Shown piece after piece: positions 11,412 to 62,911 of a stretch of 64,000 nucleotides of DNA (within the stretch, counting starts at the first letter, position 1; each line of letters begins with the position of its first letter). The stretch lies in assembly GCA_963847705.1 (NCBI GenBank), contig CAWKBC010000001.1, positions 128,001 to 192,000 on the forward strand, read 5' to 3'. The translations under genes and the position numbers were made by a program. Source of the DNA: an uncultured Pseudomonadota bacterium. GTDB taxonomy: Bacteria; Myxococcota_A; Polyangia; Fen-1088. The notes below the pieces were generated by a model. It did no database searches. It saw only the letters and a list, made by a program, of their open reading frames with translations, and was not told the DNA's origin.

Positions 11412-11418
11412 GCTGCCC

Positions 11419-12144: not shown

Positions 12145-12177
12145 ACAGCCGGAAAAACCCGGGAGGACGGGTCAACC

Positions 12178-13743: not shown

Positions 13744-13890
13744 CGCCGCCGCCGCTGACGCGACCGCCGGATGAAGTCCGAGCGTGACGCGGGAGCAGGA
13801 GTCGGTCTGAAGCGGCGGGTGTGCGCGTTTCGTCGACGGGGAAGGTGAAGGTGGTCGACCCGGGGAAATGACGCGTGCTGGAAGCATTTC

Positions 13891-13917
13891 CTGACAACGC
13901 CAGCCCGGGCCAGACAA
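13891..13917 (+). promoter_or_regulatory. Bipartite element CTGACAA-N15-GACAA upstream of the orphan anti-sigma-like gene
   Basis: Exact match. Confidence 0.65.
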
Positions 13918-14051
13918 GACGACATGAGGGTGATGGCGAATCGATTGTGTTTCGCGTTGTCGGAGCGATGCTTGGTGCCACTCCCCGATTGCCGACAGAG
14001 CGTTGCGAACTAGGTATCTGTGTGGCGAATTCCGGGAAAAGGGGTTGGCGG

Positions 14052-32035: not shown

Positions 32036-33334
32036 TCAGGGCAGCGTGTACTTCTTCAGCATCGGCCAGACGATGTTGGCATTCGCCGCTTCGTGTCCGC
32101 CGTTGTTGTCCGTGCACAGCGTGACCTGAACACCCCCGCCGCACTGAGAGTACGTCTGACAGTTGTTTGAATCTGCCGCGCTGGGATTTCCGGTGCATCC
32201 GTCGAGGCTGGCCCATTTCTGAAAGGTGCCGACAGCTCCCAGAAAATCGATCGCCATGCCCGTGACCAGCGCCGAGTGCCCCCCGGCATAAGGCACGGTG
32301 GTGTCATTCTTGCCGCGCCACTCGATCATGGTGAGGGGACGCGCAGGCGCGCAATCCCCCTCGTTCTGTTGTGTCAGGTCGAAAGAGGCCGGCCCCGCGG
32401 CAGCAAAGAGATCCGCCGCATGACATCCGAGATAGTTCGACATGCCTCCGCCCATCGAGAAGCCCACCGCATACACGCGCTTGACGTCGATGCAGGCGAC
32501 CTTCTCCACCGCGGCCACCAGCGCCCTCGCAAAGGCCACGTCGTCGACGGCGACGCCGTTGATCGGCGAGGTGCAACAGCCCTCGATATCCCAGGCGTTT
32601 CCCAGATTCGGGCTTGGCTCTCCGTTGGGGAACGCCGAGACGACGCCTTCCTTGTCGATCACCGCGGGGTACGGCGAGCCGGACCTCCACTCGGTGTCGG
32701 AGCCGCCGATGGGATGAAAATCGACCACCAGTGGGACGGCCGTGGTACCGGTGTACCCGCTCGGCACGTGCAGGATGTATTCGCGGCTGAGCGTGCCGAC
32801 GGTGATCTTGGTGGTGGTGTCCCCGGCTTTCAAAGCGGTCGAAGGACAGGTCACCGATCCCCCTCCGGTTCCACCGGCGCCCGTACCTCCAGCTGTTCCG
32901 CCCGAGCCAGTCGCGCCGCTGCTGCCTCCATGGCCGCCGGTTCCCGCCGGGCCTCCTCCGGTTCCCGTGCCGCCGCTGCCCCCACCGAGGCCCGACAATC
33001 CGCCGGTGCTGCCGCCGGTGGCGCTGCCGCCGGTGCCGGTCGTGCCGCCGGTGCCGGTCGTGCCGCCGGTGCCGGTCGTGCCGCCGGACGACCTGCCGGC
33101 TGCGCCGCCGGTGGCCACGCTGCCGCCGGTGCCCGAGCCGATGCCCCCGGTTCCCGTGTTCGTCCCTCCGGTTCCGTGACCTCCGGTCTCCGAGCTGGAG
33201 CCGCCCGTGCTCGAGACAGAGCCGCCGCTCCCTCCAGGACCCGTCGAGTTACCCTGGTCGGTCCCGCACGCCGGTGGAAGAAGAACACCGACGAGGAACG
33301 TCGCTCTAAGACAGGCTTTCATTGAAGGTCGCAT
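32036..33334 (-). CDS. LpqC/PHB-depolymerase-like (CE1-like) esterase lipoprotein
   Basis: Lipoprotein signal and Gly linker; REYILHVP, PLVVDFH, VDDVAF, GFSMGG, GKNDTTVPY, GGH. Confidence 0.85.
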   Translation of the reverse strand: MRPSMKACLRATFLVGVLLPPACGTDQGNSTGPGGSGGSVSSTGGSSSETGGHGTGGTNTGTGGIGSGTGGSVATGGAAGRSSGGTTGTGGTTGTGGTTGTGGSATGGSTGGLSGLGGGSGGTGTGGGPAGTGGHGGSSGATGSGGTAGGTGAGGTGGGSVTCPSTALKAGDTTTKITVGTLSREYILHVPSGYTGTTAVPLVVDFHPIGGSDTEWRSGSPYPAVIDKEGVVSAFPNGEPSPNLGNAWDIEGCCTSPINGVAVDDVAFARALVAAVEKVACIDVKRVYAVGFSMGGGMSNYLGCHAADLFAAAGPASFDLTQQNEGDCAPARPLTMIEWRGKNDTTVPYAGGHSALVTGMAIDFLGAVGTFQKWASLDGCTGNPSAADSNNCQTYSQCGGGVQVTLCTDNNGGHEAANANIVWPMLKKYTLP

Positions 33335-47802: not shown

Positions 47803-49206
47803 CTAGTTCATCGGGAAGGCCTGGATGTAGAGCTTCTGATTGCTCCCGCCGCTGCAATCCCAGATTTGCATCGGCAGGCCGGGCGAGGTGCTTCCGGCAT
47901 TTTCGTCCATGCAGCGATTGGCCTGGACGTTCTTGAAGATGAAGGCGCCGGTCTGGGCGTCCGCGGTGATGTTCCAGGCCTCGCTCGGCTTTCCGGCCTG
48001 ACAGTCGTTGATCCGGAGCTGGGTCGAGTTGCCCAGCGAGCTGCCGCTGCCTGCCAGGTCGATGCACTTGGTGTTGTTGGCGTTCATCACGATGTGCCAG
48101 TTCGGTCCGTCGGGGAGCAGGTTGAACATCTGGGGCGTTCCGTTCCAGGTCGTGTACTGCTGGACAGTGGTCCCGTCAGTGGTCGAGCCGTTGGCGATGT
48201 CGAGCGAGACGTTGCCGCCACCGGTCAGCGGAGCCAGACGGTAGATGTAGCCCGAGTCGAAGACCGGCGTGTAGTTGTTGTTGCGCCAGACGGTGATGCC
48301 GTGCTGCCAGACGCCGCCATTCGAGGGGCTGGTCAGGGCCTTGTAGCCATCGGGGCAGCCAGCCGCGGGATTCGTGTTCGAGCCGGGAGGGCAGCTTCCC
48401 CCGACCCCAGCGCTGAATTGCCCCACCGATCCAGGCGCATTCTGGCAGAGCGCGCCGCTGCCGAACGGGTTGACGTAGGGAGCGCCGACCTGATTGGCGC
48501 CGAGGCGACCGGCGACGACGCCGCTGGCGCCGCCGGGGAAGCCCGCACCCTCGCAGTAGTAGGCGACCGGCGCGACCACGGTGGGCTTGGAGAGGTTGGT
48601 GAGCGATCCGGTGTCCAGGATGTCGCCAAAGAAGGTCCCCTCCTGCATCGGGTAGTTCACCCGATCGACGCCCCAGCCGATGCTCGGGTCATTGGAGTCG
48701 AGCCAGAGGGGGACGTGAACCCCCGCGGTGTTGACGTGGGCGATCATGCAGGCGGAGAGGCCCTCCATGCAGGTCGAGTTGGTCGAAACGCCACCGTTCT
48801 TCCAGGCGGGGCAGAGACCAAGCCCGCCTGCGTAGGTGTAGTTGACGCCATTCTGATCCTGCTTGACCAGCGTGTCGTTGGCGTTGAGGGCGCACTTGAC
48901 CAGGTAGGAGATCGTCTTGCGGCCGCCCGAGGTGGTCATGAGGCCATTGATCGACGACAGGCCGTTGATCGACGACAGGCCGTTGATCGACGACAGGCCA
49001 TTGATCGACGACAGGCCGTTGATCGACGACAGGCCGTTGATCGACGACAGACCGTTGATCGACGACAGGCCGTTGATCGACGACAGCGCGAAATCGTGAC
49101 TGGTGGTCTCGACGTCGCCAGCCTGGTCACCGCCGCAGCCGATGAGGCCCACGATGGCGCCGAGCGCGATGCTGATCTGGATGGTTCTTTTACCGAGTTC
49201 TCGCAT
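47803..49206 (-). CDS. Lipoprotein with (LSSING)8 repeat, Cys-rich core and C-terminal ricin-B (CBM13-like) lectin
   Basis: Lipobox LIGC; tandem repeat; QxW-type subdomains (VQQY..QMF, KCIDL..EAW, RCMD..QIWDC..NQK). Confidence 0.8.
   Translation of the reverse strand: MRELGKRTIQISIALGAIVGLIGCGGDQAGDVETTSHDFALSSINGLSSINGLSSINGLSSINGLSSINGLSSINGLSSINGLSSINGLMTTSGGRKTISYLVKCALNANDTLVKQDQNGVNYTYAGGLGLCPAWKNGGVSTNSTCMEGLSACMIAHVNTAGVHVPLWLDSNDPSIGWGVDRVNYPMQEGTFFGDILDTGSLTNLSKPTVVAPVAYYCEGAGFPGGASGVVAGRLGANQVGAPYVNPFGSGALCQNAPGSVGQFSAGVGGSCPPGSNTNPAAGCPDGYKALTSPSNGGVWQHGITVWRNNNYTPVFDSGYIYRLAPLTGGGNVSLDIANGSTTDGTTVQQYTTWNGTPQMFNLLPDGPNWHIVMNANNTKCIDLAGSGSSLGNSTQLRINDCQAGKPSEAWNITADAQTGAFIFKNVQANRCMDENAGSTSPGLPMQIWDCSGGSNQKLYIQAFPMN
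48943..49086. repeat. 18-bp tandem repeat, 8 copies (GCCGTTGATCGACGACAG)
   Basis: Eight near-identical units read directly from the sequence; encodes LSSING on the minus strand. Confidence 0.97.
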
Positions 49207-49896: not shown

Positions 49897-49910
49897 CCCG
49901 CTCTGTGTAT

Positions 49911-49937
49911 TTGTCTCGTCCACCTCCGCATTGTCAT
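49911..49937 (-). promoter_or_regulatory. Bipartite element ATGACAA-N15-GACAA pointing at the small-gene pair
   Basis: TTGTC at 49911 and 49931 on the plus strand. Confidence 0.7.
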
Positions 49938-49988
49938 GGAACCGGGGGTACGCAATCGCACCACCCATCCCGAACCCTGACAGGTTGT

Positions 49989-50015
49989 CTGACAAGGCAG
50001 GGCAGATCGCGACAA
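49989..50015 (+). promoter_or_regulatory. Bipartite element CTGACAA-N15-GACAA upstream of the ECF sigma factor
   Basis: Exact match; 17 nt before GTG 50033. Confidence 0.75.
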
Positions 50016-50032
50016 TGGTCGGGTGGGTTATT

Positions 50033-50584
50033 GTGAGTCATCTGCGCCTCATTCCCCGAGCAGCTCCGCAGATGTCGCCCGACGATGCCTGCCTCGGTGC
50101 CTTCCAGCAGGAGCTCGGTTACATCTACCGATCGTTCCGGCGACTCGGCACCCCTCCCTCGGAGGTGGAGGACCTGACTCAGGATCTGTTCGTGGCGCTC
50201 CGAAGAGCCTGGAGCAAGTACGACTCCACCCGTCCCCTGCGCCCCTACCTGTTTGGGTTCGCCTTCCGGATCGCGGCTGCCCACGAGCGTAAGCGGACAC
50301 GCGAGGTGGCGTCCGGCCTGGTCCAGCTGGACGACACCGGGCCGGGGGCAGAGGAGGAGCTCCAATCCCATCAGACGCGCCGGCTGGTGCTGGCGGCGCT
50401 CAACCGGATTCCGCTTCCCAGGCGTGCCGTTCTCGTCATGCACGAGCTCGATGACGTTCCGGTGGCCGAGGTGGCCTCCACCCTCTCGATCCCCCTCTTC
50501 ACCGTCTACTCGCGGTTGCGGAAGGCCCGTCGAGAGCTCCAGACGGGAATTCGGCGCCTGCTGAGGGAAGCGGGCGGCGAGTGA
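50033..50584 (+). CDS. ECF RNA polymerase sigma factor
   Basis: VEDLTQDLF, LRPYLFGFA, RRAVLVMHEL, EVASTLSIPLFTVYSRLRKAR. Confidence 0.92.
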   Translation: MSHLRLIPRAAPQMSPDDACLGAFQQELGYIYRSFRRLGTPPSEVEDLTQDLFVALRRAWSKYDSTRPLRPYLFGFAFRIAAAHERKRTREVASGLVQLDDTGPGAEEELQSHQTRRLVLAALNRIPLPRRAVLVMHELDDVPVAEVASTLSIPLFTVYSRLRKARRELQTGIRRLLREAGGE

Positions 50585-51255
50585 TCGAATCGAAGGGAAG
50601 ACTTCCCCCAGCGGTGCGGGCGCTGCTGGATCGAGAGCGTCAGATTTCGGACCTGCCCGCCGCCGCCCGTGCCAGGATGCTCTCTCGTGCGCGCGCTGCG
50701 CTGGCCGCGGGGGTGGCCAGGCAGCCAATCCCGCCGAGGGCACCCTCAGCAGTTCGATGGGCGGCGGCGGCGGGGCTGGCCTGCGTGGCAGCCGTGGCGT
50801 CGGGCGCGGCCGCTTACAGCGTCGGCGTCCACGCCCGGCCGGTCGCGCCCGGCCTCCCGACGCCGCCCGCGCAATCCCCCACCGCCCGCTCGGACGCGGG
50901 AGACGGGCCGATCGTCGACCTGCGCCCTGCGCCGGCGCTCGCCGCGAAGCCGACCCGCCCCTCGGCTGGCGCTGGCCGGGCGGAGCTGCGTCTCCTCCAG
51001 CAGGCGCGGGCGGCCGTGGCGCGAGAGGATTTCATGCTGGCGCTCCAGCTGCTGGGCGAACACGCGCACCGCTTCAGAACGGGGCGGTTGGTGGAAGAGA
51101 GGGAAGCTCTGCGCGTCAAGTCCCTGGCGGGTCTTGGGCGCCGCGGGGCCGCCCGCCGTGCAGCGGCCGATTTCGAAGCCAACTTTCCGCGCAGCCCCCT
51201 TCTGCCCAGCGTCAGCGACATGCTCGATTCGTCCGCAGAGAATGAACGAAATTGA
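50581..51255 (+). CDS. Putative anti-sigma factor (single TM, Pro-rich linker, TPR-like C-terminus)
   Basis: GTGA overlap with the sigma gene; TM helix; EEREALRVKSL...FEANFPRSP. Confidence 0.7.
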   Translation: MIESKGRLPPAVRALLDRERQISDLPAAARARMLSRARAALAAGVARQPIPPRAPSAVRWAAAAGLACVAAVASGAAAYSVGVHARPVAPGLPTPPAQSPTARSDAGDGPIVDLRPAPALAAKPTRPSAGAGRAELRLLQQARAAVAREDFMLALQLLGEHAHRFRTGRLVEEREALRVKSLAGLGRRGAARRAAADFEANFPRSPLLPSVSDMLDSSAENERN

Positions 51256-51434
51256 GTCACGGCCGCGGGCGGCAACTCCTCGGGGCTAGCCACCACATTC
51301 CGTTTTCGCGGCCGGCGCCGGGCCAGGCAAGATCCAACGGGACTGGCTGTCGCCAGGTTCGCTAGGCCTGGCGCGACATGCCAGCATGCGAGGGTGTCGC
51401 CGTCTCAATCGCGAGGCTGTCGGAAAAATATCTC

Positions 51435-52475
51435 GTGAGGTGGCTCCTGTTCAGCTTGTCCTTGATGGCTCCCGCGTCGACGCTCCTCGGAACGACCGCC
51501 TGGGCCGCTTCGCCGACGACCGTCACGCTCGATTACCAGGTCGATCCAGAGGTGACTGGATGTCCGGCGGCGGCGGAGTTTCGGAGCACCGTGGAGCGCC
51601 AGCTTGGCTACGATCCGTTTCGGGCTGTCGCTGAACGGCGGGTCGCCGTCCAGATAGGGCGCAGGGGCGCCAGCTTCGACGGACGGATCAAATGGAGCGA
51701 CGACCATGGACGATGGGTGGGCGATCGCCAACTGGCTTCGCGACGCCCGGGGTGCGCCGATCTCGCGGCCAGCCTGGCTTTCTCGGTGGCGGTGCAGATA
51801 CAGCTCATCGCGGCGCTTGCGCCGTCCACGCCGGAGCCGCCCGCTCCGGTGCAGACCCCCGTCGCTCCTCCCGCCCCGGCGATGGTGTCGGAGCAACCTC
51901 CGATCTCTCCTGCGCAACCTCTCCCGCCGGCGGGCAAAGTCGCCGCGCCGCCAACCCCGGAACCGCGCTCGGCGGAACATGCGCGGCGTCTGAAGCTATT
52001 CCTCGGCGTTGGTCCCTCGCTGACTCTGTGGTCGGCGCCTCATCCCACGGGACTCGGCCGGATCTTCGCCAGCGGACGGGTCTCCTGGATCTCGGTCGAG
52101 ATCGCCCTGGACGCCGCGTTGCCGGCAACCCAAAGAGAGGCCGACGGAAGCGGCTTTTCACTCGACCGGTTCGCGGCTGGTGCGGCCGTGTGTGGTCACG
52201 CATCGGCCTTGGCCGCCTGCCTCACGACGACGGTGGGTCTGCTGCGGGCCCGTGGGCTCGAGGTGGACGCTCCTGCTTCGTCCTCCGGCCTCTTCTCCCA
52301 GCTGGGGGCCCGGATTGGGGTGGCGGAAAATCTCGGTCGCTACTTCGTCGCCGCCAGAACGGACGCGCTCGTCATGCTCTCCTCGTGGTCGGTGAGGCTC
52401 AATGACACCGCCGTCTGGACGACACCCCGCGTCGGCCTCGTCGTCGGCTTCGACCTCGGCGTGCGCTTTTTCTGA
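51435..52475 (+). CDS. Secreted protein with a probable C-terminal outer-membrane beta-barrel
   Basis: Signal peptide; Cys-pair N-terminal domain; Pro linker; amphipathic strands ending GFDLGVRFF. Confidence 0.55.
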   Translation: MRWLLFSLSLMAPASTLLGTTAWAASPTTVTLDYQVDPEVTGCPAAAEFRSTVERQLGYDPFRAVAERRVAVQIGRRGASFDGRIKWSDDHGRWVGDRQLASRRPGCADLAASLAFSVAVQIQLIAALAPSTPEPPAPVQTPVAPPAPAMVSEQPPISPAQPLPPAGKVAAPPTPEPRSAEHARRLKLFLGVGPSLTLWSAPHPTGLGRIFASGRVSWISVEIALDAALPATQREADGSGFSLDRFAAGAAVCGHASALAACLTTTVGLLRARGLEVDAPASSSGLFSQLGARIGVAENLGRYFVAARTDALVMLSSWSVRLNDTAVWTTPRVGLVVGFDLGVRFF

Positions 52476-52508
52476 GAAGACCTTTTGTCTGCGAGCACCT
52501 ACAATCCG

Positions 52509-53066
52509 ATGCAGTCCGTGCGTCAATTGCGCCTAGTGCCGTCACCCTCTCCAGCGGTGACCCCTGACGAGGCCTGCCTGGAGGCCTTTCTGCGCGAGCT
52601 CGACTACGTGCACCGAACGTTGCGCCGCCTCGGCACCTCCCCGTCGGAGACGGACGATCTGGCGCAGGAGGTGTTCCTCGCTCTGCGCAATTGCTGGAGC
52701 AAGTACGATCCCGAGCGGCCGTTGCGCCCGTATCTGTTCGGGATCGCCTTCCGGATCGCGCTGGCGCACCACCGCAAGAGAAACCGCGAGGTGGCATTCG
52801 AGGTCGTCGAGGTCAGCGACACCGGTCCTGGACCCGATGATGTGCTCCAGAGCAAGCAGGCCCGTGCGCTGGTGTTGGCGGCTCTCGAGCACATTCCTCT
52901 GCGACGACGTGCCGTGCTGCTCATGCACGATCTCGACGAGGTCCCCGCCGAGGAGGTCGCCGCGGCGCTCGGAATCCCGAAGTTCACCGTCTACTCGCGC
53001 CTGCGAAAGGCCCGCCGCGAGATGGAGACCGCCGTGCGGCGACTGACGAAGCCGAGGACCCGATGA
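52509..53066 (+). CDS. ECF RNA polymerase sigma factor (close paralog of 50033)
   Basis: DDLAQEVF, LRPYLFGIA, RRAVLLMHDL, GIPKFTVYSRLRKAR. Confidence 0.92.
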   Translation: MQSVRQLRLVPSPSPAVTPDEACLEAFLRELDYVHRTLRRLGTSPSETDDLAQEVFLALRNCWSKYDPERPLRPYLFGIAFRIALAHHRKRNREVAFEVVEVSDTGPGPDDVLQSKQARALVLAALEHIPLRRRAVLLMHDLDEVPAEEVAAALGIPKFTVYSRLRKARREMETAVRRLTKPRTR

Positions 53067-53737
53067 CCATGCGTTCCGACATGCCCCCCGAGCTCCGCAC
53101 GCTGCTCGACCAGGAGCGGGTCATCCCGCCTCTTCCGTCCTCGCAACGGGCGCGCGCCATGGCCCGGGCGCGGGCAGCCCTGGCCACGCCAGCCAAGGCC
53201 ACCGCTGCACCGTTCGGCGCGCCGCCGCGTCTCCGGTGGGCCACAGCGGCGGCGGCTGTCCTGGTGGTCAGCGCGGCGGTCGCCGCCGCCGCATACGAGA
53301 TCCACACCCGGTTCGCGCCCGGACCGACGACTGGTCCGGCAGCGGTAGCCTCGGTGCCCAAGGTCGTGGCGAACGCCCCCTCTCCGTCGCCGCCTGCGGG
53401 GGCGCTCCCCGAACTGCCCCCTGCGCCGGCACCCACCGTCGCGGCACCGGTCCAGTCGCCGGCGGATGCGGCGCGCGAGGAGCTGCATCTCATGCGGCAG
53501 GCGCGCGCGGCGGTCGCGCGCGGTGACTTCGCAGCGGCGCTCGCGCCTCTCGCCGAGCACGCGCGCCTCTGCAAGAACGGTCGGCTCGTCGAGGAACGGG
53601 AGGCGCTGCGCGTGAAGGCGCTCATGGGCCTCGGCCGCTCCGAAGAGGCGCGTCGCGCGGCGGCCGCTTTCCGCGCACGTTTCCCGCGCAGCGTTCTCTT
53701 GCCGGCAGTCGGTCAGATGCCGGTTTCGCGACCGTGA
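53063..53737 (+). CDS. Putative anti-sigma factor (paralog of 50581)
   Basis: ATGA overlap; TM helix; EEREALRVKAL...FRARFPRS. Confidence 0.7.
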   Translation: MTMRSDMPPELRTLLDQERVIPPLPSSQRARAMARARAALATPAKATAAPFGAPPRLRWATAAAAVLVVSAAVAAAAYEIHTRFAPGPTTGPAAVASVPKVVANAPSPSPPAGALPELPPAPAPTVAAPVQSPADAAREELHLMRQARAAVARGDFAAALAPLAEHARLCKNGRLVEEREALRVKALMGLGRSEEARRAAAAFRARFPRSVLLPAVGQMPVSRP

Positions 53738-54756
53738 TCGGGGCTGGGCTTCGTCCGCCCGGCGGACGGCTGCCAGTCGCGCTTCGCTTGGTTCTCGTTC
53801 TGGTGGCGGCGAGCTGCTCCGGCACGCTCGACGCTGGCAAGGACATTCCCCACGGGATGCTCCCGGTCGACGAGCGGAACCCGGTGATCATCTACAACGA
53901 CTCCTCGATCGACAACTGGATGGGAGAGTACGCATTCCTGCTGGCGAACAGCGGAGGACCTCCGGTGGCCGGACTTGTCGCGACGGCCAGCGGCTACTGG
54001 CACAACGTCAACGACAACGCCAGCGGTTGGAGCAACGTGTTGACCGCCGCGCAGTCGAGCGGGTTGAAGAACATTCCGGCGACGGTCATCACGAGCACGA
54101 ACAATCCTCCGCTCACGCGACCCATGGACGGACAGATCGACGACACTGCGCCCAACAACTCGGCCGGCGCTTCGTTGATCGTGAATCTGTCGCGCGAGCT
54201 GAGCCTGCCGTGGCGTCCGGTCGTCGTCTTGGCGGGCACGCAAATGACCGACGTCGCCGACGCCTATCTGATCGATCACAGCGTCGCCGAGCGGGTGGTC
54301 GTGGTGGCGGCGCTCGGAACCTACGCCGCGCCGAACGGTGTCATGGCTGCACCCAACGGCGAGCTCGACCCGTGGGCCGACTGGATCGTGGCCCAGCGGT
54401 TCCAGTACGTGCAGGTCAGCGCCTTTTACGATCAGACGGTGGATGTGACGACGGCTGAGCTCCCCGATCTGCCGTCCAATGCACTGGGTGCCGAGATGGC
54501 CGCGAAGCAACCCAACATCTTCACCATCACCACCGCGGCCGATCAGGTGAGCGTCCTGGCCGTCGCCTTACCCGCCTTCGTTGGCGCGGTGCAACGAGCG
54601 GTCCCCGACACCACGGCCGCCTTCGATTCCACCCAGGGCCCGCCATTGATTCCGGCCGCGAACGGCAACGTCTGGATCGTCACGCAGATCGCCGCGCCGC
54701 TCGCCGGCGCCACTCTCTGGCAGATGCTGCTCGATCGCACCCTCTTCGGCGGCTGA
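53734..54756 (+). CDS. Lipoprotein of unknown function, possibly nucleoside-hydrolase-like fold
   Basis: Lipobox AASC; VIIYND..D, GASLIV, VVVLAG..TDVADAYL.D..VAERVVVV, NGELDPWA echo the IU-NH fold. Confidence 0.45.
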   Translation: MIGAGLRPPGGRLPVALRLVLVLVAASCSGTLDAGKDIPHGMLPVDERNPVIIYNDSSIDNWMGEYAFLLANSGGPPVAGLVATASGYWHNVNDNASGWSNVLTAAQSSGLKNIPATVITSTNNPPLTRPMDGQIDDTAPNNSAGASLIVNLSRELSLPWRPVVVLAGTQMTDVADAYLIDHSVAERVVVVAALGTYAAPNGVMAAPNGELDPWADWIVAQRFQYVQVSAFYDQTVDVTTAELPDLPSNALGAEMAAKQPNIFTITTAADQVSVLAVALPAFVGAVQRAVPDTTAAFDSTQGPPLIPAANGNVWIVTQIAAPLAGATLWQMLLDRTLFGG

Positions 54757-54890
54757 CCGCCCGACGACGGTCGCGACGGAAGCCGGCGCAGTTTTCCCTC
54801 AACAAAACGACGGCCGCCAGCAGTTCCAGTGTGGTCGCCGTCCGCGCTCTGCGGACAGGCCCCCCCAGACCTGCGGCCAAGGAGAGCTTC

Positions 54891-56371
54891 GTGCAACAGA
54901 CTGCGTCCCGTTTCAAGAAGACGTTCCGGATCGCTGCGCCAGTTCTGGCGGCCCTCATCGCCGGGTGTGGAGCAGCGGACACCGACGGCGGTGAGAGTGG
55001 CTCTGGTGGCCGCCTGGGGACCGGAGGAATGGTTGGCGGGGGAGGGGAGACGGCGTCCGGAGGGAACGGCGGGACGAGAACGGCGGCCGGGGGGACGTTC
55101 GGCTCTGGCGGGATCGGCACCGCGACAGGCGGAAGCGTCGGGGGAGGTGGCGCGGCTGGCAGCGGACCGGCGGGGTCGGGCGGCGCCACGGCGACCGGCG
55201 GGCATCTCGGCTCCGGGGGAGCGGGAAACGGCGGCGCAGGTGGAGGGAGCAGCGGTGGCGGCACGGGAAGCGGCGGGGCTGCTGGGACGGGCGGGACGAG
55301 CGGCGGGGGGACGAGCGGCAGCGGCGGCAAAGGCGGCGGCGGGACACCCGGCTCGGGCGGCACCGCCGGCTCGGCCGGCGCGGGGGGAGCGTCGGGGGCC
55401 CTCGGGCCGTGCGACATCTACCAATCGGCGGGCACTCCCTGCGTGGCGGCCCACAGCACCGTCCGTGCGCTCTATGCCGCCTACAAGGGCGCCCTCTACC
55501 AGGTCCGGCGAGCTTCAGACAATTCTACGAAGGACGTCCCGGTGCTCAACGCCGGAGGGTTCGCTGACGTCTCCGTTCAAAATACTTTCTGCTCCGGCAC
55601 GAAGTGCACCATCTCGATCCTCTACGACCAGTCGACGAACCACAACAACCTCGTCAAGTCGGGCGTCGCGCATTGGTTGCCGAACGGAGGAACCGAAGCC
55701 GATGCCGCGGCCGGACAGATCACGGTCAGCGGTCACACGGTTCACGGAATCTACGTCACCGGCGACTCCACGAACGTCGCTTACAGAAACAACGCCACGA
55801 CGGGGGTGGCGAAGGGAGATCAGGCGGAGGCGATGTACATGGTGGTGGACGGCAAGCGCACCAGCGACCAGTGCTGCTTCGACTACGGAAACGCCGAGAC
55901 CACCGGGGTCGACGACGGCAACGGCACGATGGAGGCCGTGTACTGGGGGTCCGACACCACCTGGGGGGGAAGGGCGAAGGCAACGGCCCGTGGGTGGCCG
56001 CCGACCTCGAGAATGGGATGTTCAAGAGCAACCAGGGCGGATGGCAAACCACCTCGACGTCGCCGAACGACAAGTCGGTGGTCGCGGCCTTCGCGACCGC
56101 GATGTTGAAAGGTCCGTCCGGGAATCATTTCACGCTCAAGGCTGCGGACGCGCAGTCTGGCGCCCTGACCACGATGTGGGACAGCGTGCGTCCATCTCCC
56201 GGCTACAGTCCCAAGAAGTTGGAGGGGGCGATCATCTTGGGAACGGGCGGGGACGGAAGCAATGGCGGCACGGGAACCTTCTTCGAAGGAGCCATGACCA
56301 GCGGCAATCCGTCGGACGCGACCGACGCCGCCATCCAGGCCAACATCGTGGCGGCGGGCTATGGGCGCTGA
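54891..56371 (+). CDS. abfB: GH54-like lipoprotein, split by a 1-nt deletion in a G run near 55965
   Basis: Lipobox IAGC; GPCDIY, CCFDYGN, TMEAVYWG, then in another frame ADLENG, GGDGS, GTFFEG; break lies at CTGGGGGGGAAG. Confidence 0.82.
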
Positions 56372-56448
56372 GGTCCCGTCGTCGAGAAAAGTGAGCTAGT
56401 TCTCGCGAATCGGGCCACTGCGGGGTACTCGGAAGACAGCCACGCGCG

Positions 56449-57081
56449 ATGCCGATCCCCCGTTCCAAGCCACCTCTCTCACTGGTCGTCGGCGGAGCTC
56501 CCCGCGACGCCAGCGATCGCGACCTGGCAGCCGGTCTCGTCGCGGGAGAGGAGTGGGCCGTCTCTGAAACCTGGCGCCGGTTCGCGCCCATGGTTCTCAT
56601 GGCCGCCGAGCGTATCCTTGGTTCGAGCTCCGAGGCCGAGGACGTCGCCCAGGACGTGTTTTGCCTGGTCTTTCAGCGCGTGAGAACGCTCCGGCAGTTC
56701 GGAAGCTTTCGGAGCTTCGTCTATTCCTTCGCCGTCCGGCGGCTGCGGGAGGAGCTGCGCCGCCGCAAGCGACGTCACTGGCTGTCGCTCTTCGGTGCCG
56801 CCCAGCCGGACGCGCCAGATCTCCGATCCGCGGATCTGGAGTCCCGGGACGTGTTGCGGCGGTTCGACCGGTTGCTCGATCGGCTTTCGGCCCGCGACAG
56901 GCTGGTGTTCGTCCTCAGGCGCATGGACGACATGACGATCGAGGAGATCGCCGGGACGATGGATCTGTCGACGTCGACGGTGAAGCGCGCGATGGCACAC
57001 GCCTCCGAGCGGCTGTCCCGCTGGGTCGCGGCCGACTCGGGCCTTGCCGCCCTGGCGGGGGGGAAACGATGGGAAAAGTAA
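56449..57081 (+). CDS. ECF RNA polymerase sigma factor
   Basis: AEDVAQDVF, FRSFVYSFA, RLVFVLR, EEIAGTMDLSTSTVKR. Confidence 0.9.
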   Translation: MPIPRSKPPLSLVVGGAPRDASDRDLAAGLVAGEEWAVSETWRRFAPMVLMAAERILGSSSEAEDVAQDVFCLVFQRVRTLRQFGSFRSFVYSFAVRRLREELRRRKRRHWLSLFGAAQPDAPDLRSADLESRDVLRRFDRLLDRLSARDRLVFVLRRMDDMTIEEIAGTMDLSTSTVKRAMAHASERLSRWVAADSGLAALAGGKRWEK

Positions 57082-58412
57082 CGGCGGGGGCCGACGGCCC
57101 ATTCGCGGGCGACCCGGGCGATCATCCGGCCCTGTCGTCGCTGGTCGAGCTGAGCCGCGACGCGGTGAAACCACCCAGCGAGGCGCAGCTGGAACGAGGA
57201 TTGATCGAGGTGCGGGAGCGCCTGGCCGAGGTTCGTTCGCGCGGCCGCGTCTGGCGGCGGGCTGCGGTCGCCGGAGCGGCGGCGGCGGTCCTGCTTGCGA
57301 CCGGGATCTGGGGAGTGTCGGTGTTTCGGAGTGGTGCGATTTTGGGCCCGCTGGCCGTCGATCGGCCGGTGACGGTTGATCGGATCGAAGGCGGGGAGTT
57401 GCTGGACGGAGGTTATCTTTCCGAATCGGGACATGGGGGCGTCGGTGTGTTCTTCAATGAAGGAAGCTCATTCCTGCTTGCGCCGGGAACCCGGGGTCGC
57501 TTGCGCGAGGTCTCCAAGGACGGCGCCCGCTTTGCGCTCGAGGACGGCGGGGCGTCGTTCCAGATCACGCCGAACGGGGCCCGCCGGTGGTCGGTCGAGG
57601 CCGGACCTTTCCTGGTGACCGTCAAGGGGACCGTCTTCAACGCCGCGTGGGATCCGGTCAGCGAGCGCTTCGAGCTGTCTCTGCGTCGAGGTCGCGTGGT
57701 GGTCAGCGGGCCGGTCGCGGGCGGGGCCATTCCCCTTCGCGCTGGACAGCACCTCGTCATCGTCCTGCCCCGAGCAGAGATGGTCATCACTGAAGAACGG
57801 TCACAGGAGCCGCCAGAGGAGCAGGCCCGGGAGGGCCCGCCGACTGAGATGCCCGCGGCTGCGGCGGCGCCCTCCGCGAAGCATCCGGCCGCGCGGACGA
57901 ACATGGCCGGTGGCGCGGCACCTCTCGTCTCCAGCACCAGCGCGGGGCGACGCTGGGCCGAGCTGATGGCCGCTGGACACTGGGACCAGATCCTGGCCGA
58001 CGTCGATCGCCAGGGGATCGACGCCGCGCTGGAGTCTGCCTCCAGCGAGGACTTGCTGGCGCTCGCCGATGCCGCTCGCTATCGGCGCCGCGCGGGTCTG
58101 GCGCGCGCGGCGCTCCTCGCCCAGCGACGCCGCTACCCTGGCTCGGTCCGGGCGCTGGACGCGCTGTTCCTGCTCGGTCGGGTCGAGGAGCTGAGCTCAG
58201 ACGGTGCCGCGCGTGCGATCGCGTTTTATGACGACTATCTCGAGCGTGCGCCCCGGGGCGGATATGCGGCGGAGGCGCTGGGGCGCAAGATGATCCTCAC
58301 CAACGACCTCGGCGGTCCGGGCAAGGCGCGGCCGCTCGCCGACGAGTATCTGCGTCGCTTTCCCAGCGGCAGCTACGCGGGGTCGGCGCGGGCGCTCGGC
58401 CGCGTACCGTAG
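57069..58412 (+). CDS. FecR-domain anti-sigma factor with C-terminal TPR-like domain
   Basis: TM helix; FNEGSSF.L, LEDG, VEAGPFLVTVKGTVF (FecR); RRYPGS...ALFLLGR...YLRRFPSG. Confidence 0.82.
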   Translation: MGKVTAGADGPFAGDPGDHPALSSLVELSRDAVKPPSEAQLERGLIEVRERLAEVRSRGRVWRRAAVAGAAAAVLLATGIWGVSVFRSGAILGPLAVDRPVTVDRIEGGELLDGGYLSESGHGGVGVFFNEGSSFLLAPGTRGRLREVSKDGARFALEDGGASFQITPNGARRWSVEAGPFLVTVKGTVFNAAWDPVSERFELSLRRGRVVVSGPVAGGAIPLRAGQHLVIVLPRAEMVITEERSQEPPEEQAREGPPTEMPAAAAAPSAKHPAARTNMAGGAAPLVSSTSAGRRWAELMAAGHWDQILADVDRQGIDAALESASSEDLLALADAARYRRRAGLARAALLAQRRRYPGSVRALDALFLLGRVEELSSDGAARAIAFYDDYLERAPRGGYAAEALGRKMILTNDLGGPGKARPLADEYLRRFPSGSYAGSARALGRVP

Positions 58413-58418
58413 GGCATC

Positions 58419-59441
58419 GTGGTGGCCCTGGCGCCCACGGTCTTGCTGACGTCACTCGCCTGTCTGTGGGGGGCTCGTCTCGAGGCGGCCACCGTCCTGA
58501 TCGTGCGCCCGGCCTCTCCTTCGGCCGAGCTGACCGAGACGGTCTCGCGGCTACACGGCGAGATGTTGTCGGTGGGGTTGGCCGTCACGATCGACGAGCG
58601 CCCTCGAACGGACGCCTCGAGCGCGCCCGCCTGGTTGGAGGGCGTGGCGCTCGACCGCGGGATCGACGCGGCGATCGACGTGATCGGCGGTGGGCGGGTG
58701 CAAGCGGCCGACATCTGGGTGTTCCATCCTGCGCCGCGGCCGCCGCAGGTCACCCGCGTGATGGTCGAGCCGGACGTCGAGAACGCGCCGGCGCGCCTGG
58801 CCATTCGCGCCATCGATGTTCTTCGCTCGTTGCTCATCGAAAGAGAGCTGGCGGTCGCACCGACGGTGCCGTCGCCGGCGACGCCCGCGGTGGTGGTCGC
58901 CACCGACGCTTCACCGGTCCACGCCGGCGTGCAGATCGGGTTCGAGCTGGGCGCGGCAGCGCTGGCCAGCCTGGACGGCGTCGGCCCCGCGATCTTGCCG
59001 CTCCTTCGCATCGACGCGGCGGTGAGTCCATGGCTGGGGCTACAAGCCGAGGCAGCGGGATTCGGAACGCGCCCCACGGTGGGAGCGCCGGGGGCCAGCG
59101 CGCGGGTCGCCCAGCAGTATGCGCTGGCCGGAGCGTGCATCTGCGCGCCTTCGATGGCGCGCCTGCGGCTGGTCGCGGGCCTTTCGGCCGGCGCCCTGCG
59201 GACGGCGGCCGACGGCGAGGCAGCGGCGCCGTTGCAGGGGCACTCGGTCGCGCAGTGGTCCTTCGTGCTCGAGGCGAGTGTCGGTGCGCGCTTGCGGCTC
59301 GCCAGGCGCGCCCACCTCACGGCCGCCGTGCACGTTCAGGTCGCCGAGCCCTACGTCGACGTCCGCGTGGTGAACGCAGGATCCGCCACCAGCGGTCGCC
59401 CCAACGTCCTCGTGACCTTCGCCGTCGGTGAGTGGTTGTGA
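58419..59441 (+). CDS. Secreted protein with a probable C-terminal beta-barrel
   Basis: Signal peptide; N-terminal domain (LAIRAIDVLRS); Pro linker; amphipathic strands; same layout as 51435. Confidence 0.5.
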   Translation: MVALAPTVLLTSLACLWGARLEAATVLIVRPASPSAELTETVSRLHGEMLSVGLAVTIDERPRTDASSAPAWLEGVALDRGIDAAIDVIGGGRVQAADIWVFHPAPRPPQVTRVMVEPDVENAPARLAIRAIDVLRSLLIERELAVAPTVPSPATPAVVVATDASPVHAGVQIGFELGAAALASLDGVGPAILPLLRIDAAVSPWLGLQAEAAGFGTRPTVGAPGASARVAQQYALAGACICAPSMARLRLVAGLSAGALRTAADGEAAAPLQGHSVAQWSFVLEASVGARLRLARRAHLTAAVHVQVAEPYVDVRVVNAGSATSGRPNVLVTFAVGEWL

Positions 59442-60367
59442 CGGGCGGCGCGCGCTGGTCTGCCCTGGTTGCGCTGGCGGTGGCCCTCGCGCAGGTGGCC
59501 TGTTCGCGCGCCACCCTGGACGCCGTGACCGGCGCTCCCGCCGACGCCGCGGCCGATGCGCTCCTCTCGGCCGGATGCGCGTCGCCTGGGCTCCCGGCCG
59601 GCGATATGACGCGGACGCTGCAGGTGGGGACGGTGTCGCGCAGCTACGTCCTCCACCTGCCGGCGGCGTACGACGGCACGAAGGCCGCGCCGCTGGTCCT
59701 CGATTTCCACGGTATCGGCGGCACCGGCGCGAGCGAGCTGGCGAGCTCACCCTATCCGCCGCTGCTCGATCCCACCGGAGTGGTCATGGCGTTTCCCGAC
59801 GGGTTGAAGGGGCCCGCCGGCACCGCCTGGAACGTCGGTCCCTGCTGCGTGGCGGGCGTGGACGACGTGGCGTTCGCCCGCGCGGTGGTGGCCGACGTCG
59901 GACAGGCGGCCTGCATCGACGCGAATCGCGTCTACGCCGTGGGCGTGCTGACGGGCGGCGGGATGGCCTACTATCTCGCCTGCCAGGCCGCCGATCTCTT
60001 CGCGGCCGCGGCGCCCGCCGCGTTCGACATGCTGGCCGAGAACGTGGGCACGTGTCTCCCGTCGCGGGCCATCAGCGTCGTCTCCTTCCGGGGGACTGCC
60101 GACCCACGCGTCCCGTACGCGGGCGGCGCCTCGTCGCTGGTGCCGGGGATGCCGGTCACCTTCCTGGGCGCGGTGGGGTCGTTTCAGGCCTGGGCGCAGA
60201 TCGATCACTGTGCCGGGGCGGCCTCTTCTGCCGACGCGAACGGGTGCGCTCACTACTCCGGCTGTGAGGACGGGGTGGAGGTCATCCTCTGCAGCAAGCA
60301 AGGGGGGATGGATGATCCCGGGGATCCAACGATTGCCTGGCCAGTTCTCAGGCGGCACGCGCTCTGA
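59438..60367 (+). CDS. Esterase-fold lipoprotein lacking catalytic Ser and His (pseudo-enzyme; paralog of 32036)
   Basis: Aligns along its catalytic domain with 32036, but GFSMGG is GVLTGG and GGH is GGM. Confidence 0.8.
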   Translation: MTGGARWSALVALAVALAQVACSRATLDAVTGAPADAAADALLSAGCASPGLPAGDMTRTLQVGTVSRSYVLHLPAAYDGTKAAPLVLDFHGIGGTGASELASSPYPPLLDPTGVVMAFPDGLKGPAGTAWNVGPCCVAGVDDVAFARAVVADVGQAACIDANRVYAVGVLTGGGMAYYLACQAADLFAAAAPAAFDMLAENVGTCLPSRAISVVSFRGTADPRVPYAGGASSLVPGMPVTFLGAVGSFQAWAQIDHCAGAASSADANGCAHYSGCEDGVEVILCSKQGGMDDPGDPTIAWPVLRRHAL

Positions 60368-60393
60368 CAGGGCGTCGGGGCCCTGTTTTTTTT
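60367..60393 (+). terminator. Rho-independent terminator
   Basis: ACAGGGC-GTCGGG-GCCCTGT hairpin followed by a T tract, closing the third ECF operon. Confidence 0.75.
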
Positions 60394-60465
60394 GAACCAT
60401 TCGGCACCGCGGACGGCCACTGCGGGCCAAACGGACATTCTCCGTTCAAATCGAGGAGCGAAACC

Positions 60466-61761
60466 ATGAAGGCAGCACGTCTGTCGATCCTGATTCTGGC
60501 CGGTGGCATCGCAAGCATCTCTGGGTGCGGCGGCTCGGACGCGGGCGGAACCGGCGGCTCGGGCACCGGCGGCTCTTCGAACACCGGCGGGACGATCGGG
60601 ACTGGCGGCACGCGCGCCGGCACGGGCGGCTCGGGCACGGGCGGCTTCGGCACGGGCGGCTCGCAAACTGGAGGCGCTGCCGGTTCGCGGGCCACCGGCG
60701 GCGCGACTGGGACGGGCGGCGCCATCGCCACCGGCGGCGCGACCGGGACCGGCGGTGTCGCCACCGGCGGCGCGACCGGGACCGGCGGTGTCGCCACGGG
60801 CGGCACGACCGGGACCGGCGGTGTCGCCACCGGCGGCGCGGGGGGCGGGGGCGGGACCTCTGCCAGCGGAGGCGGTGCTGGTCACGGCGCCACCGGCGGT
60901 GAGAACGGTACCGGTGGCAGCGCGGGCGGCACGGGCAGCGGAACCTGCACGGCCTCGAAATCCGCCGGCGCGAGCGCGTCGGGCACGGGACCGCACAAGG
61001 TGACCGTCGAGACGAACGCCGACTCCGGAATCAACCAGGGAACCATCTTCCGGCCGTCCGATCTGGGCGGCACGGAGAAGTACCCCATCTTCGTCTGGGG
61101 CGAGGGCGGCTGTTCGGAGAATGGGCTCTCGAACTCGGCCGCGATGGGCGAGATCGCGTCGTACGGATACTTCGTCATCGCCGACGGCGTCCCCAACGGC
61201 AGCGCCTCCCGCACGATGACCTCGGGCGACCCCTCGACGATGGGGGTCCCGCTGCTGGCGTACGTCACCTGGGCGATCGCCGAGAACGACAAGCCCTGCA
61301 GCGCCTACTACCAGGCCCTGGACACCACCAAGGTGGCGGCCAACGGATTCTCGTGCGGAGGATTGATGTCCGAGGGGACCGCCGGCGATTCGCGCATCAC
61401 GACCTGGGGACTCAACAGCAGCGGGCTCCTGAGCGCGGACCCGACCTATCTCAAGACAGTCCATACCCCGGTCCTGGTCGTGCTGGGCGGTTCCGGCGAC
61501 ATCGCCTACACGAACGGCGAGCGCGACTACTCGACCATCGCCGGCAACGGGATTCCGATCATGCTGTTCAGCAAGGCGCTGGGGCACGGTGGTGACCTCT
61601 TCAGCGCCCATGGTGGCGATTTCACCAAGATCGATCTGGCCTGGCTCAACTGGCAGCTCAAGGGCGACACCACCGCCACCGGCAAGGGCCTGCTGATCGG
61701 CCCGAGCTGCCCTTACTGCAGCGACAGCGCCTGGGAAGTGAAGTCCCAGAACATCCAGTAG
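60466..61761 (+). CDS. Alpha/beta-hydrolase lipoprotein with Gly/Thr linker
   Basis: Lipobox ISGC; YPIFVWGEGGC, IASYGYFVIA, GFSCGG, GDIAY, GHGG. Confidence 0.82.
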   Translation: MKAARLSILILAGGIASISGCGGSDAGGTGGSGTGGSSNTGGTIGTGGTRAGTGGSGTGGFGTGGSQTGGAAGSRATGGATGTGGAIATGGATGTGGVATGGATGTGGVATGGTTGTGGVATGGAGGGGGTSASGGGAGHGATGGENGTGGSAGGTGSGTCTASKSAGASASGTGPHKVTVETNADSGINQGTIFRPSDLGGTEKYPIFVWGEGGCSENGLSNSAAMGEIASYGYFVIADGVPNGSASRTMTSGDPSTMGVPLLAYVTWAIAENDKPCSAYYQALDTTKVAANGFSCGGLMSEGTAGDSRITTWGLNSSGLLSADPTYLKTVHTPVLVVLGGSGDIAYTNGERDYSTIAGNGIPIMLFSKALGHGGDLFSAHGGDFTKIDLAWLNWQLKGDTTATGKGLLIGPSCPYCSDSAWEVKSQNIQ

Positions 61762-61764
61762 CCC

Positions 61765-61814
61765 CGCCGATCCCGGGCGTCGCTGACGCTCCTCGGCGCC
61801 GCGCCTCTTTTTTT
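61765..61814 (+). terminator. Possible Rho-independent terminator
   Basis: Interrupted hairpin (CGCCGA...GCGTC-GCT-GACGC...TCGGCG) with a T tract shortly after. Confidence 0.4.
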
Positions 61815-61873
61815 GTAACGAAAGTGCGAGAGCCGGCCACTGACAACGTGGTCCGCTCTCACCTGGAGGTCAA

Positions 61874-62911
61874 ATGAGGACGACGCGCGCGCAAGCTCTG
61901 TTCCTGGGAATCGCCGCGACCGGGCTCGTCGCCTGCAGCGGAAGCAGCGCCACCAGCGGCGGGACCGGTGGCACGGCCGTTTCGACCGGAGGCGCTGCTC
62001 CCACGGGCGGGTCGGTCGGCTCCGGCGGGAGCGCCAGCGGTGGCAACGGCGCGCGGGGCGGGAACGGCGGTGGCAGCGGCGGGGCGGTCTCCGTCGCCGA
62101 CGCCGGCGCGCCCTGCACGATGGGCAGCTGGCCCGCGGCCAATCCCACCGTCGCCGGTCCATTCGCGACGGTCACCGAGGACAACGTCGGCCCCGCGGCG
62201 GGCGTGGGAGCCGACGGCGGCCCACCCGTCGCCTTCACGATGTTCCGTCCAAAGGATCTCGGCCAAGGTGGTCTGTGCCACCCGGTCGTGACCTGGGGCA
62301 ACGGAACGGGCGCGAACCCCAGCCTCTACAAGGTGCTGCTGAATCAGCTCGCCTCGCACGGGTTCGTCGTCATCGCCTCGGACAGCCCGAACGTCTCGCA
62401 AGGGAGCCCGGCTCCGATGCTGGCCGGGGTGACCTGGGTGCTGCAAGAGAATGACGATCCGACCAGCGAGCTCTATCAGAAGATCGACACCACCCACGTC
62501 GGCGCGACCGGCCACTCGCAGGGCGCGTTCGCGACGACGACCGCCGGCGCGGACAGCCGCATCACCACCATCGCCCCTCTCTGCGGCGCCTCCGCCCAAC
62601 GGAACCTGCACGGTCCCGCCTGGCTGTTCTGCGGGGGCATGGACACCACCGTCCCCTGCAGCACCGTGCAGAGCTCCTTCACCGCCATCACCAACGTCCC
62701 CATCATGCTGGCCGACTACCTCTCCGTCGATCACGCCAGCTGGATCACCTTCCGGGGCACGACCCCTGGACCCGTCGAAGCGGCCGTGACCGCCTGGATG
62801 CGCGTGCAACTGATGGGCGACAGCGCGCTGCGCTCCTGGTTCTACGGCGCGTCGTGCAAGCTGTGCACCGACGCGGGCTGGCAGGTCATGCAGAAGATGA
62901 TGGACCAGTAG
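61874..62911 (+). CDS. Cutinase/chlorophyllase-like alpha/beta-hydrolase lipoprotein
   Basis: Lipobox LVAC; HPVVTWGNG, LASHGFVV, GHSQG, GMDTTV, DHASW. Confidence 0.82.
   Translation: MRTTRAQALFLGIAATGLVACSGSSATSGGTGGTAVSTGGAAPTGGSVGSGGSASGGNGARGGNGGGSGGAVSVADAGAPCTMGSWPAANPTVAGPFATVTEDNVGPAAGVGADGGPPVAFTMFRPKDLGQGGLCHPVVTWGNGTGANPSLYKVLLNQLASHGFVVIASDSPNVSQGSPAPMLAGVTWVLQENDDPTSELYQKIDTTHVGATGHSQGAFATTTAGADSRITTIAPLCGASAQRNLHGPAWLFCGGMDTTVPCSTVQSSFTAITNVPIMLADYLSVDHASWITFRGTTPGPVEAAVTAWMRVQLMGDSALRSWFYGASCKLCTDAGWQVMQKMMDQ

Follow-up and report, generated by a model that had tools for sequence, protein, structure and literature searches.

Candidate two-piece, TonB-independent glycan receptors coupled to ECF sigma factors in an uncultured member of the Polyangia

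How may a Gram-negative bacterium inform its transcription machinery of a polysaccharide that stays outside the cell? Polysaccharide sensing in these bacteria is thought to follow the import of fragments through TonB-dependent transporters. The question is raised by positions 50033..60393 of a 64,000-nucleotide stretch (hereafter the window; contig CAWKBC010000001.1, positions 128,001 to 192,000), where genes of extracytoplasmic function (ECF) sigma factors and of their anti-sigma factors stand beside genes of outer-membrane barrel-like proteins and of lipoproteins. The ten genes are all on the + strand and have the coordinates assigned to them by an earlier, sequence-only reading of this DNA. 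We propose, with a probability of about 0.6, that each four-gene unit of the locus encodes a modular two-piece outer-membrane glycan receptor that is independent of TonB and relays to an anti-sigma factor and the ECF sigma factor paired with it.

Two four-part modules and their conservation

The locus consists of two four-part modules and one extra sigma/anti-sigma pair, instead of the three sigma cassettes counted by the sequence-only reading. The order in module A is barrel–sigma–short anti-sigma with a domain like tetratricopeptide repeats (TPR)–lipoprotein, namely barrel protein A (51435..52475, with an alternative start at 51378), sigma-2 (52509..53066), anti-sigma-2 (53063..53737) and lipoprotein A (53734..54756); the extra pair, formed by sigma-1 (50033..50584, 64% identical to sigma-2) and anti-sigma-1 (50581..51255), lies 5' of the barrel gene. 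Module B is arranged as sigma–FecR/TPR anti-sigma–barrel–lipoprotein, with sigma-3 at 56449..57081, anti-sigma-3 at 57069..58412, barrel protein B at 58419..59441 and lipoprotein B at 59438..60367. Three independent cassettes were ruled out by the relatives, in which the unit is barrel-sigma-anti-sigma-lipoprotein and in which the place of sigma-2 is the usual one; the first two supposed cassettes are thus a single module with an additional pair in front, and such a pair also precedes module A in the relative locus L001. Each sigma gene overlaps that of its anti-sigma, as had been stated, by 4 nucleotides (50581-84), 4 nucleotides (53063-66) and 13 nucleotides (57069-81).

The expected conservation of gene linkage was confirmed in relatives. 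For barrel B, counted in the best 80 of 369 loci without de-duplication, the anti-sigma gene stood directly 5' of the barrel gene in 68/68 loci with room for it and the sigma gene was present in 36/36, while a lipoprotein with the esterase fold followed 3' of the barrel in 51/55. When loci were chosen conversely by the type-B anti-sigma, the next gene belonged to the barrel family in 20/20, with 20-360 bits (two with only 20-21) over a background of at most 7.4 bits for other open reading frames (ORFs); these loci were taken from the 24 best of 53 matches in five other genomes, with four of the 24 skipped, and came from four genomes; the genomes had been selected for holding barrel A, and the sample is therefore not free of bias. 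For type A, the sigma gene was found within 3.2 kb in 19/20 loci, the anti-sigma gene in 18/20 and the lipoprotein gene in 15/20, three of the five lipoprotein misses being truncated loci. The gene after barrel A is a sigma in 28 and a lipoprotein in 10 of 39 distinct loci, one locus being too short. The four parts co-occur in at least three gene orders, of which barrel-sigma-anti-sigma-lipoprotein is the commonest for type A. Two more type-A modules lie on the same contig in other orders. The host genome (G000; 6.1 Mb, 85% complete) has five type-B sigma genes, and after four of them comes a gene with a match to the barrel-B profile.

The nearest labelled relatives of the region are Polyangia / Polyangiaceae of the Myxococcota. 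The barrel family occurs in 63/88 other genomes of the host's family, and barrel B in at least 1/200 other genomes of a phylum-wide sample and at least 12/121 of an order-wide sample, both counts being lower bounds with few candidates scored per genome. The lack of a nearby TonB receptor, on which the sequence-only reading had built, was borne out: no TonB-receptor-like ORF was found on this contig or in 159 relative loci (934 kb in all, many of them short), and of the eight in the genome the nearest lies 57 kb from any cassette.

Barrels, degenerate enzymes and a predicted docking tag

The proteins starting at 51435 and 58419, suspected of being beta-barrels with an N-terminal domain, were both modelled as such by AlphaFold2, with a mean predicted local distance difference test (pLDDT) score of 85 for barrel A and 87 for barrel B (119 and 121 homologues, respectively). 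Both models contain an alpha/beta N-domain, a Pro-rich linker of low confidence and eight strands that extend to the C-terminus. Following the signal peptide, the N-domain of barrel A spans residues 30-128 and its barrel residues 187-344; in barrel B, the corresponding limits are 25-146, for a domain that resembles TolB-N and anticodon-binding domains, and 172-339. The best structural match was OprF for barrel A (Z 17.6, root-mean-square deviation (rmsd) 1.7, 126 aligned) and OmpW for barrel B (Z 17.9, rmsd 2.9, 167 aligned), with which Foldseek agreed. The N-domains gave middling matches, read from the lower rows of whole-protein structure searches (Z 8.8-10): a hibernation-factor fold for A (Z 8.8) and TolB-N and anticodon-binding domains for B (Z 9-10; TolB Z 9.3, rmsd 2.7, 102 aligned). 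Judging from the signal peptides and the standard topology of such barrels, the N-domains would be periplasmic and loops 1-4 would face outward. Neither barrel protein had a meaningful match in Pfam or NCBIfam. Elsewhere in the host genome, at C34:112127-114074 (-), a barrel-A-type gene accompanies a LamG lipoprotein gene with no sigma gene near; the barrel-B profile recognises the barrel half of this protein, which may thus connect the two types.

The lipobox cysteine is present in both lipoproteins and kept in their relatives, as their designation as lipoproteins had implied. What that earlier designation did not reveal is that they look like degenerate enzymes, in which a domain can be swapped and a candidate docking tag is present. 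Lipoprotein B matches solved feruloyl esterases (9j07, E 4e-28) and lacks the nucleophile: in its family the catalytic Ser is found in 0/42 members, being replaced by Leu, Ala or Gly in 42/42, while His is kept in 8/42 and Asp in 39/42. An intact paralogue of feruloyl-esterase type, 52% identical and with Ser, Asp and His present, is encoded at 32036..33334 on the - strand of the window. Four type-B loci (three distinct proteins) have no esterase and carry instead a 640-residue lipoprotein related to glycoside hydrolase (GH) family 141, always with Gly at the position of Asp523 of BT1002, a residue that has been called the putative nucleophile (PMC10154630). This Asp is kept by intact GH141 copies of the host genome and by one in L075, which is 71% identical and lies at a distance of a few kb. 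More distant type-B modules have fourth genes with LamG lectin, pectate-lyase, DM13 or Cys-rich domains; the one at L151:4481-6187 encodes a lipoprotein with the pectate-lyase fold.

For lipoprotein A, the nucleoside-hydrolase fold is indicated by four weak but concordant signals (Atlas 0.87, PF01156 on 10/120 homologues, PDB profile matches and the genome scan). The active-site motif is altered: Asp56, Asp60 and Asp270 are kept; Asn61, at the end of the N-terminal cluster, is present in 121/121 sequences; and the residue before Asp270, which in 1mas is the His of the His-Asp pair, is Ala, Ser or Gly. Comparison by eye linked the N-terminal motif to what we take to be the nucleoside-hydrolase pattern, a literature search having given no paper that states it. 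Could the lipoproteins nevertheless be active enzymes with an unusual chemistry, or could the sigmas be controlled by kinases, as has been proposed for group ECF267 (PMC7826278), so that the linkage would reflect co-expression only? The three Asp residues of lipoprotein A and the published kinase proposal speak for it, but the Ser is missing in 42/42 lipoproteins B and no protein-kinase family match was found among the 43 window proteins scanned, which are not all the window ORFs. We hold this explanation to be very improbable.

A conserved segment of about ten residues directly follows the lipid Cys in each lipoprotein family; in B its conservation is 0.69, against 0.32 for the next 14 residues, which form a linker. 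The same tag stands on GH141-type and esterase-type lipoproteins, that is, it is kept when the domain behind it is swapped, and most secreted enzymes of the surrounding gene island have a Gly/Ser/Thr-rich sequence at this position. Docking of the tag on the barrel was therefore predicted and then tested by complex prediction, using mature barrel protein A, N-domain included, and mature lipoprotein A. The complex scored 0.70 (runs of 0.66, 0.70 and 0.72) and the best of three controls 0.00; the mark for this score is reached by 116/157 solved and 2/215 mismatched pairs, rough counts for which our own alignments were used. The runs share at least 80% of their contacts, and the pLDDT of the partners is at least 90. 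In the predicted interface, residues 28-38 of the lipoprotein, the tag counted from the lipid Cys (53815..53847, +), meet residues 235-241, 270-288 and 316-327 of the barrel, which belong to loops 2, 3 and 4; the N-domain is not among the parts listed. The contact registers suggest that the tag is a strand inserted between barrel loops 3 and 4. Its closest barrel contacts, Phe241, Leu270, Ala272, Gly274, Val320 and Leu322, are 92-100% conserved. To our knowledge no solved complex of this kind exists, no search having been made for one. The prediction supports binding of the module A lipoprotein to the outer face of its barrel via the tag, and the lipoprotein would be exposed at the surface. 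The supposition that the components interact finds partial backing here in the predicted complex and its controls; a co-variation test of 49 anti-sigma/barrel and 43 lipoprotein/barrel pairs gave no separation from shuffled pairs.

The predicted complex and the degenerate enzymes would fit an adhesin equally well. Barrel and lipoprotein would then be an output, a surface-display pair that anchors a substrate-binding protein and grips the plant wall, and the anti-sigma alone would sense periplasmic oligosaccharides or another cue. It is in keeping with such a pair that the fourth gene varies, that sigma/anti-sigma pairs without a barrel and barrel plus lipoprotein without a sigma both occur, and that a LamB-type porin beside araBAD could bring small sugars into the periplasm. 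An anchor, however, would need no conserved periplasmic domain on a long linker, and the presence of a barrel after the anti-sigma is stricter (20/20) than that of a lipoprotein after the barrel (13/20 in distant type-B loci, with one more doubtful). Moreover, TPR-like domains usually bind proteins, and each sigma subfamily goes with a single barrel subfamily, which points to partners that are matched. On balance, the display function seems unlikely.

The tag is predicted to complete the outer sheet of the barrel, so that its occupancy could itself be the signal. The anti-sigma would in that case read the folding of the barrel and its occupancy by a tag, and not a glycan, and the module would monitor the envelope or the assembly of its own lipoprotein in the manner of the Rcs or Dma systems. 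There are precedents: Dma1, in which an 8-stranded barrel is tied to an ECF sigma, has vesicles and not glycan genes under its control (PMC10927553), and the periplasmic domain of OmpA is the means by which OmpA buffers RcsF against IgaA (PMC7553776). What such monitoring leaves unexplained is the recruitment of three carbohydrate-enzyme folds, each with catalytic residues lost and the fold kept, and the presence in one genome of 11 such sigmas, several of them inside the hemicellulase island. It is considered improbable.

From the anti-sigma factors to the transcriptional output

The three sigma factors have regions 2 and 4 only (Pfam Sigma70_r2 and r4_2) and all pass the TIGR02937 cut-off. 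Types A and B form separate groups in a quick tree of 78 sequences, with support of 100 and 98 in the Shimodaira–Hasegawa-like approximate likelihood ratio test (SH-aLRT), and one sigma first labelled 'other' groups inside the type-A clade. Within the host genome, a 323-residue protein at C30:4582-5553 (+) joins an N-terminal type-A sigma, placed in clade A, to a long unrelated C-terminal part, by fusion or by frameshift. Other ECF sigmas at C30:311.9-314.7 kb, C27:509.9-512.9 kb and C14:196-199 kb have weak barrel-like or short TPR-type neighbours, and the design may extend to further sigma clades.

Each of the three anti-sigmas has one hydrophobic segment, which spans residues ~59-83, and ends in a conserved helical region. 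The type-A proteins consist of cytoplasmic helices, one transmembrane segment, a Pro linker and a conserved helical TPR-like domain of ~85 residues. In anti-sigma-3, a FecR-like domain with Gly187-Thr188 stands between the transmembrane segment and the Pro linker that leads to the TPR-like domain; it is found in this anti-sigma only, with 21.7 bits in Pfam, below the cut-off of 24, and a match to the solved anti-sigma 4m0n (E 1.5e-4). From the description of all three as TPR anti-sigmas, the helical C-termini remain, while a TPR match, itself weak (CpoB E 0.014; TIGR02795 E 0.021), was obtained for the third protein only. The two short ones had no match in the libraries searched, and for them TPR is a reading of the helical motif. 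The library scans gave no STN domain at the anti-sigma C-termini, where the weak TPR matches stand instead, and the Pfam scan gave no carbohydrate-binding module (CBM) or GH match in the three. The Gly-Thr dipeptide, at which FoxR cleaves itself (PMC11637429), is present in 46/46 type-B anti-sigmas; a FecR-like domain with this site is not found in type A. Conservation is 0.74 and 0.78 in the anti-sigma C-domains and 0.77 and 0.64 in the barrel N-domains, against 0.26-0.39 in the linkers.

Two promoter-like motifs were found at the modules. Motif A (TTGTC-N15-TTGTC) is a putative operator or promoter with a copy at 49910..49941 (+; 19.1 bits with a position weight matrix from related loci) and a second, reading in the opposite sense (TGACAA-N-GACAA), at 49989..50016 (+), before sigma-1, which also matches 9/12 of the sigma-70 consensus. 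The island makes up 1.7% of the genome and holds 14/30 of the genome matches, against 0-1 for shuffled matrices, and with the retrained motif 14/68, against 1-2. The motif reads one way before barrel genes (15/39) and the opposite way before sigma genes (10/27). Since both orientations occur, it was not established as a type-A sigma promoter; it is no less likely to be a sigma-70-like element or the operator of another regulator. Motif A shows a regulation that module A shares with the arabinoxylan and arabinose genes, the regulator not being named by the motif. A strong copy stands directly before araB and a divergent esterase gene. Two copies lie upstream of the gene of an AraC-type regulator at 3394-4314 (+), a candidate owner of the motif, and an AraC-type paralogue at C32:174412-175326 (-) of the host genome adjoins a type-B module. 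Another high-scoring copy, at C21:209666 (+), does not belong to the glycan island and stands upstream of a gene for a RecA-like protein.

Motif B (TGAaCCA-N16-cact) precedes sigma-3 at 56392..56419 (+), where it is the best of 5010 upstream regions in the genome. Before type-B sigmas it occurs in the sense orientation in 12/33 cases and reversed in 1, and it is likely an autoregulatory promoter of sigma-3. A second copy at 60393..60421 (+), third best of the 5010 regions, precedes the gene at 60466..61761 (+) for a secreted alpha/beta-hydrolase lipoprotein with an intact G-x-S-x-G motif. The same hydrolase family is preceded by motif B in L064, L079, L121 and L133, five loci in all, and the 60466 gene is a likely target of sigma-3. 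A wide regulon was ruled out for motif B, which only 2/68 island genes carry.

How would the proposed receptor operate? The lipoprotein, with its degenerate carbohydrate-enzyme fold, would be the ligand-binding half, clipped by its tag onto the outer loops of the 8-stranded barrel, which would be the membrane-crossing half. In the periplasm the barrel N-domain would contact the TPR-like end of the anti-sigma and hold it until a ligand binds outside. Binding would then subject the anti-sigma to regulated proteolysis and release the sigma, on the pattern of cell-surface signalling. An oligosaccharide could not be imported through so narrow a barrel, and the likeliest trigger is therefore a polymeric substrate that clusters or pulls the tethered chain and so exposes the anti-sigma to proteases. 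The output would likely comprise the module itself and neighbouring secreted hydrolases, the 60466 product in the case of module B. Feruloyl or other ester groups would be the ligands of B. Nucleoside hydrolases bind ribofuranose and, because of this, a pentofuranose such as arabinofuranose is a candidate ligand of lipoprotein A. A glycan as the input signal is supported indirectly, by the degenerate carbohydrate-enzyme folds, the arabinoxylan gene island and the promoter-like motifs.

Several observations weigh against the two-piece receptor. Small rigid barrels are not known to have an established means of passing on a conformational signal. Between types A and B no significant profile match was obtained, either for the anti-sigmas or for the barrels, yet the barrel-B hidden Markov model matches the barrel-A-type protein of C34 with E 1e-11. 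Conservation of the whole predicted interface (0.71) does not exceed that of the remaining barrel (0.73). Loss of catalytic residues is no proof of binding, and lipoprotein A, which keeps several acids of the metal and sugar sites, may be an enzyme of new specificity. The incomplete presence of a lipoprotein in the distant type-B loci belongs here too, and some of the lipoproteins there are DM13 or Cys-rich proteins, which have no glycan link. Orphans also occur. At C27:349.9-352.4 kb of the host genome, a sigma–anti-sigma–sigma–anti-sigma tandem close to the pairs of the window lacks both barrel and lipoprotein; one anti-sigma and one lipoprotein each stand alone; and C34 and L004 have barrel plus lipoprotein without a sigma. 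Finally, no copy of motif B was detected in front of two intact genes, those of the esterase paralogue (score 2.7) and of the GH141 protein of L075.

The surroundings are those of carbohydrate degradation, in agreement with the sequence-only reading. The region lies within an island of ~100 kb of secreted hemicellulases (GH10, GH11, GH30, GH39, arabinofuranosidase B and esterases), which also contains araB-araA-araD followed by the LamB-family porin gene (window 8146-13743, +). Directly 3' of the latter, at ~13872-14714 (+), is a lone type-A anti-sigma gene with no sigma and with a copy of motif A ahead. The gene of a GH54-type alpha-L-arabinofuranosidase B lipoprotein (54831..56371, +) sits between modules A and B as a neighbour outside them and is not at this position in L060; the halves of its PF09206 domain lie in two frames, the frameshift being beside a G-run near 55,965-55,975, possibly an assembly error. 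Divergent from sigma-1, at 47803-49206 (-), is the gene of a lipoprotein in which a ricin-type lectin domain is combined with some nine 'LSSING' repeats in tandem. It has paralogues in the host genome at C27:347742-349577 and C34:29585-31237, the former also adjoining the sigma/anti-sigma tandem. The terminator assigned to the end of module B does have a hairpin and T-run (60361..60387, +), but such sites number 5 in the region against 4.5 expected by chance. Further 3', window 60466-62911 encodes two secreted lipoproteins with cutinase/PETase-like folds.

A possible receptor class and its known counterparts

Tentatively, and at odds somewhat short of even, the modules may represent an undescribed receptor class of the Polyangia, in which a small barrel serves as the socket for a surface lipoprotein, whose one donated beta-strand is the plug. 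Secreted glycan enzymes, once copied, inactivated and fitted with the tag, would be the source of new specificities. Neither transport nor TonB energy would be needed to relay the binding of the insoluble plant wall: clustering, or tension along a chain that spans both membranes, would carry it to two anti-sigma types that are unrelated and share the same design. If so, a polymer would be detected from outside by a swappable disabled enzyme, a different route of sensing, and the missing input of ECF267-type sigma factors would be named. The arrangement bears on the regulation of hemicellulose breakdown in uncultured Polyangia and might supply biosensors or surface display with a plug-in part. 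New here are the nucleoside-hydrolase-fold module, the persistence of the tag through the swap of esterase and GH141 domains and the predicted docking site; no published description of a unit of barrel and tagged pseudoenzyme was found in a search largely outside the subscription literature.

The claim of a distinct architecture is to be divided in two. A sigma followed by a FecR/TPR anti-sigma without a TonB receptor is already known as ECF267, described from the Polyangiaceae genera Sorangium and Chondromyces (PMC7826278), and module B resembles it by description, with no FecA-like or other TonB receptor. The barrel-lipoprotein half is the part for which no paper was found: the passages that deal with ECF267 name no barrel or lipoprotein, propose kinases, report no conserved promoter and do not cover the short type-A anti-sigma (PMC7826278).

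With FecA/FecR/FecI and FoxA/FoxR/FoxI the modules have in common linked genes for an outer-membrane protein with a periplasmic N-domain, a single-pass FecR-type anti-sigma with Gly-Thr and an ECF sigma (PMC11637429). The periplasmic domain of the Fox receptor binds and protects the anti-sigma until the signal arrives (PMC11637429), and by analogy the barrel N-domain would give the same protection here. They differ from the accounts of Fec and Fox in having an 8-stranded barrel in place of the TonB-dependent transporter, apparently a TPR-like domain in place of STN at the anti-sigma C-terminus, ligand recognition apparently on a separate swappable lipoprotein and, in type A, no FecR domain (PMC11637429). 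The modules would work like cell-surface signalling but lack the linked TonB receptor that defines it.

Dma1/Das1 and Reo/EcfO of the Bacteroidota likewise tie an 8-stranded outer-membrane barrel across the periplasm to an anti-sigma (PMC10927553). Dma, reported as restricted to that phylum and as controlling vesiculation, is one polypeptide, whereas barrel and anti-sigma are here encoded by separate genes, with facing folded domains, and a lipoprotein is added (PMC10927553). In the window, as in the loci related to it, each has an ORF of its own, the protein database not having been searched for longer fused forms.

The sensing ectodomains of SigI/RsgI are CBM or enzyme-like. In this system of Clostridium thermocellum a sigma/anti-sigma pair also controls biomass-degrading enzymes, with autoproteolysis, but there is one membrane and the sensor is fused to the anti-sigma, unlike the separate lipoprotein beyond the outer membrane considered here (PMC10766802). 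RcsF-OmpA-IgaA, in turn, combines a lipoprotein, an 8-stranded barrel that also has a periplasmic domain, and a partner in the inner membrane; RcsF binds the periplasmic domain of OmpA and feeds a phosphorelay, whereas the lipoproteins of these modules would dock on the outer loops, as predicted, and the output would be a sigma factor (PMC7553776).

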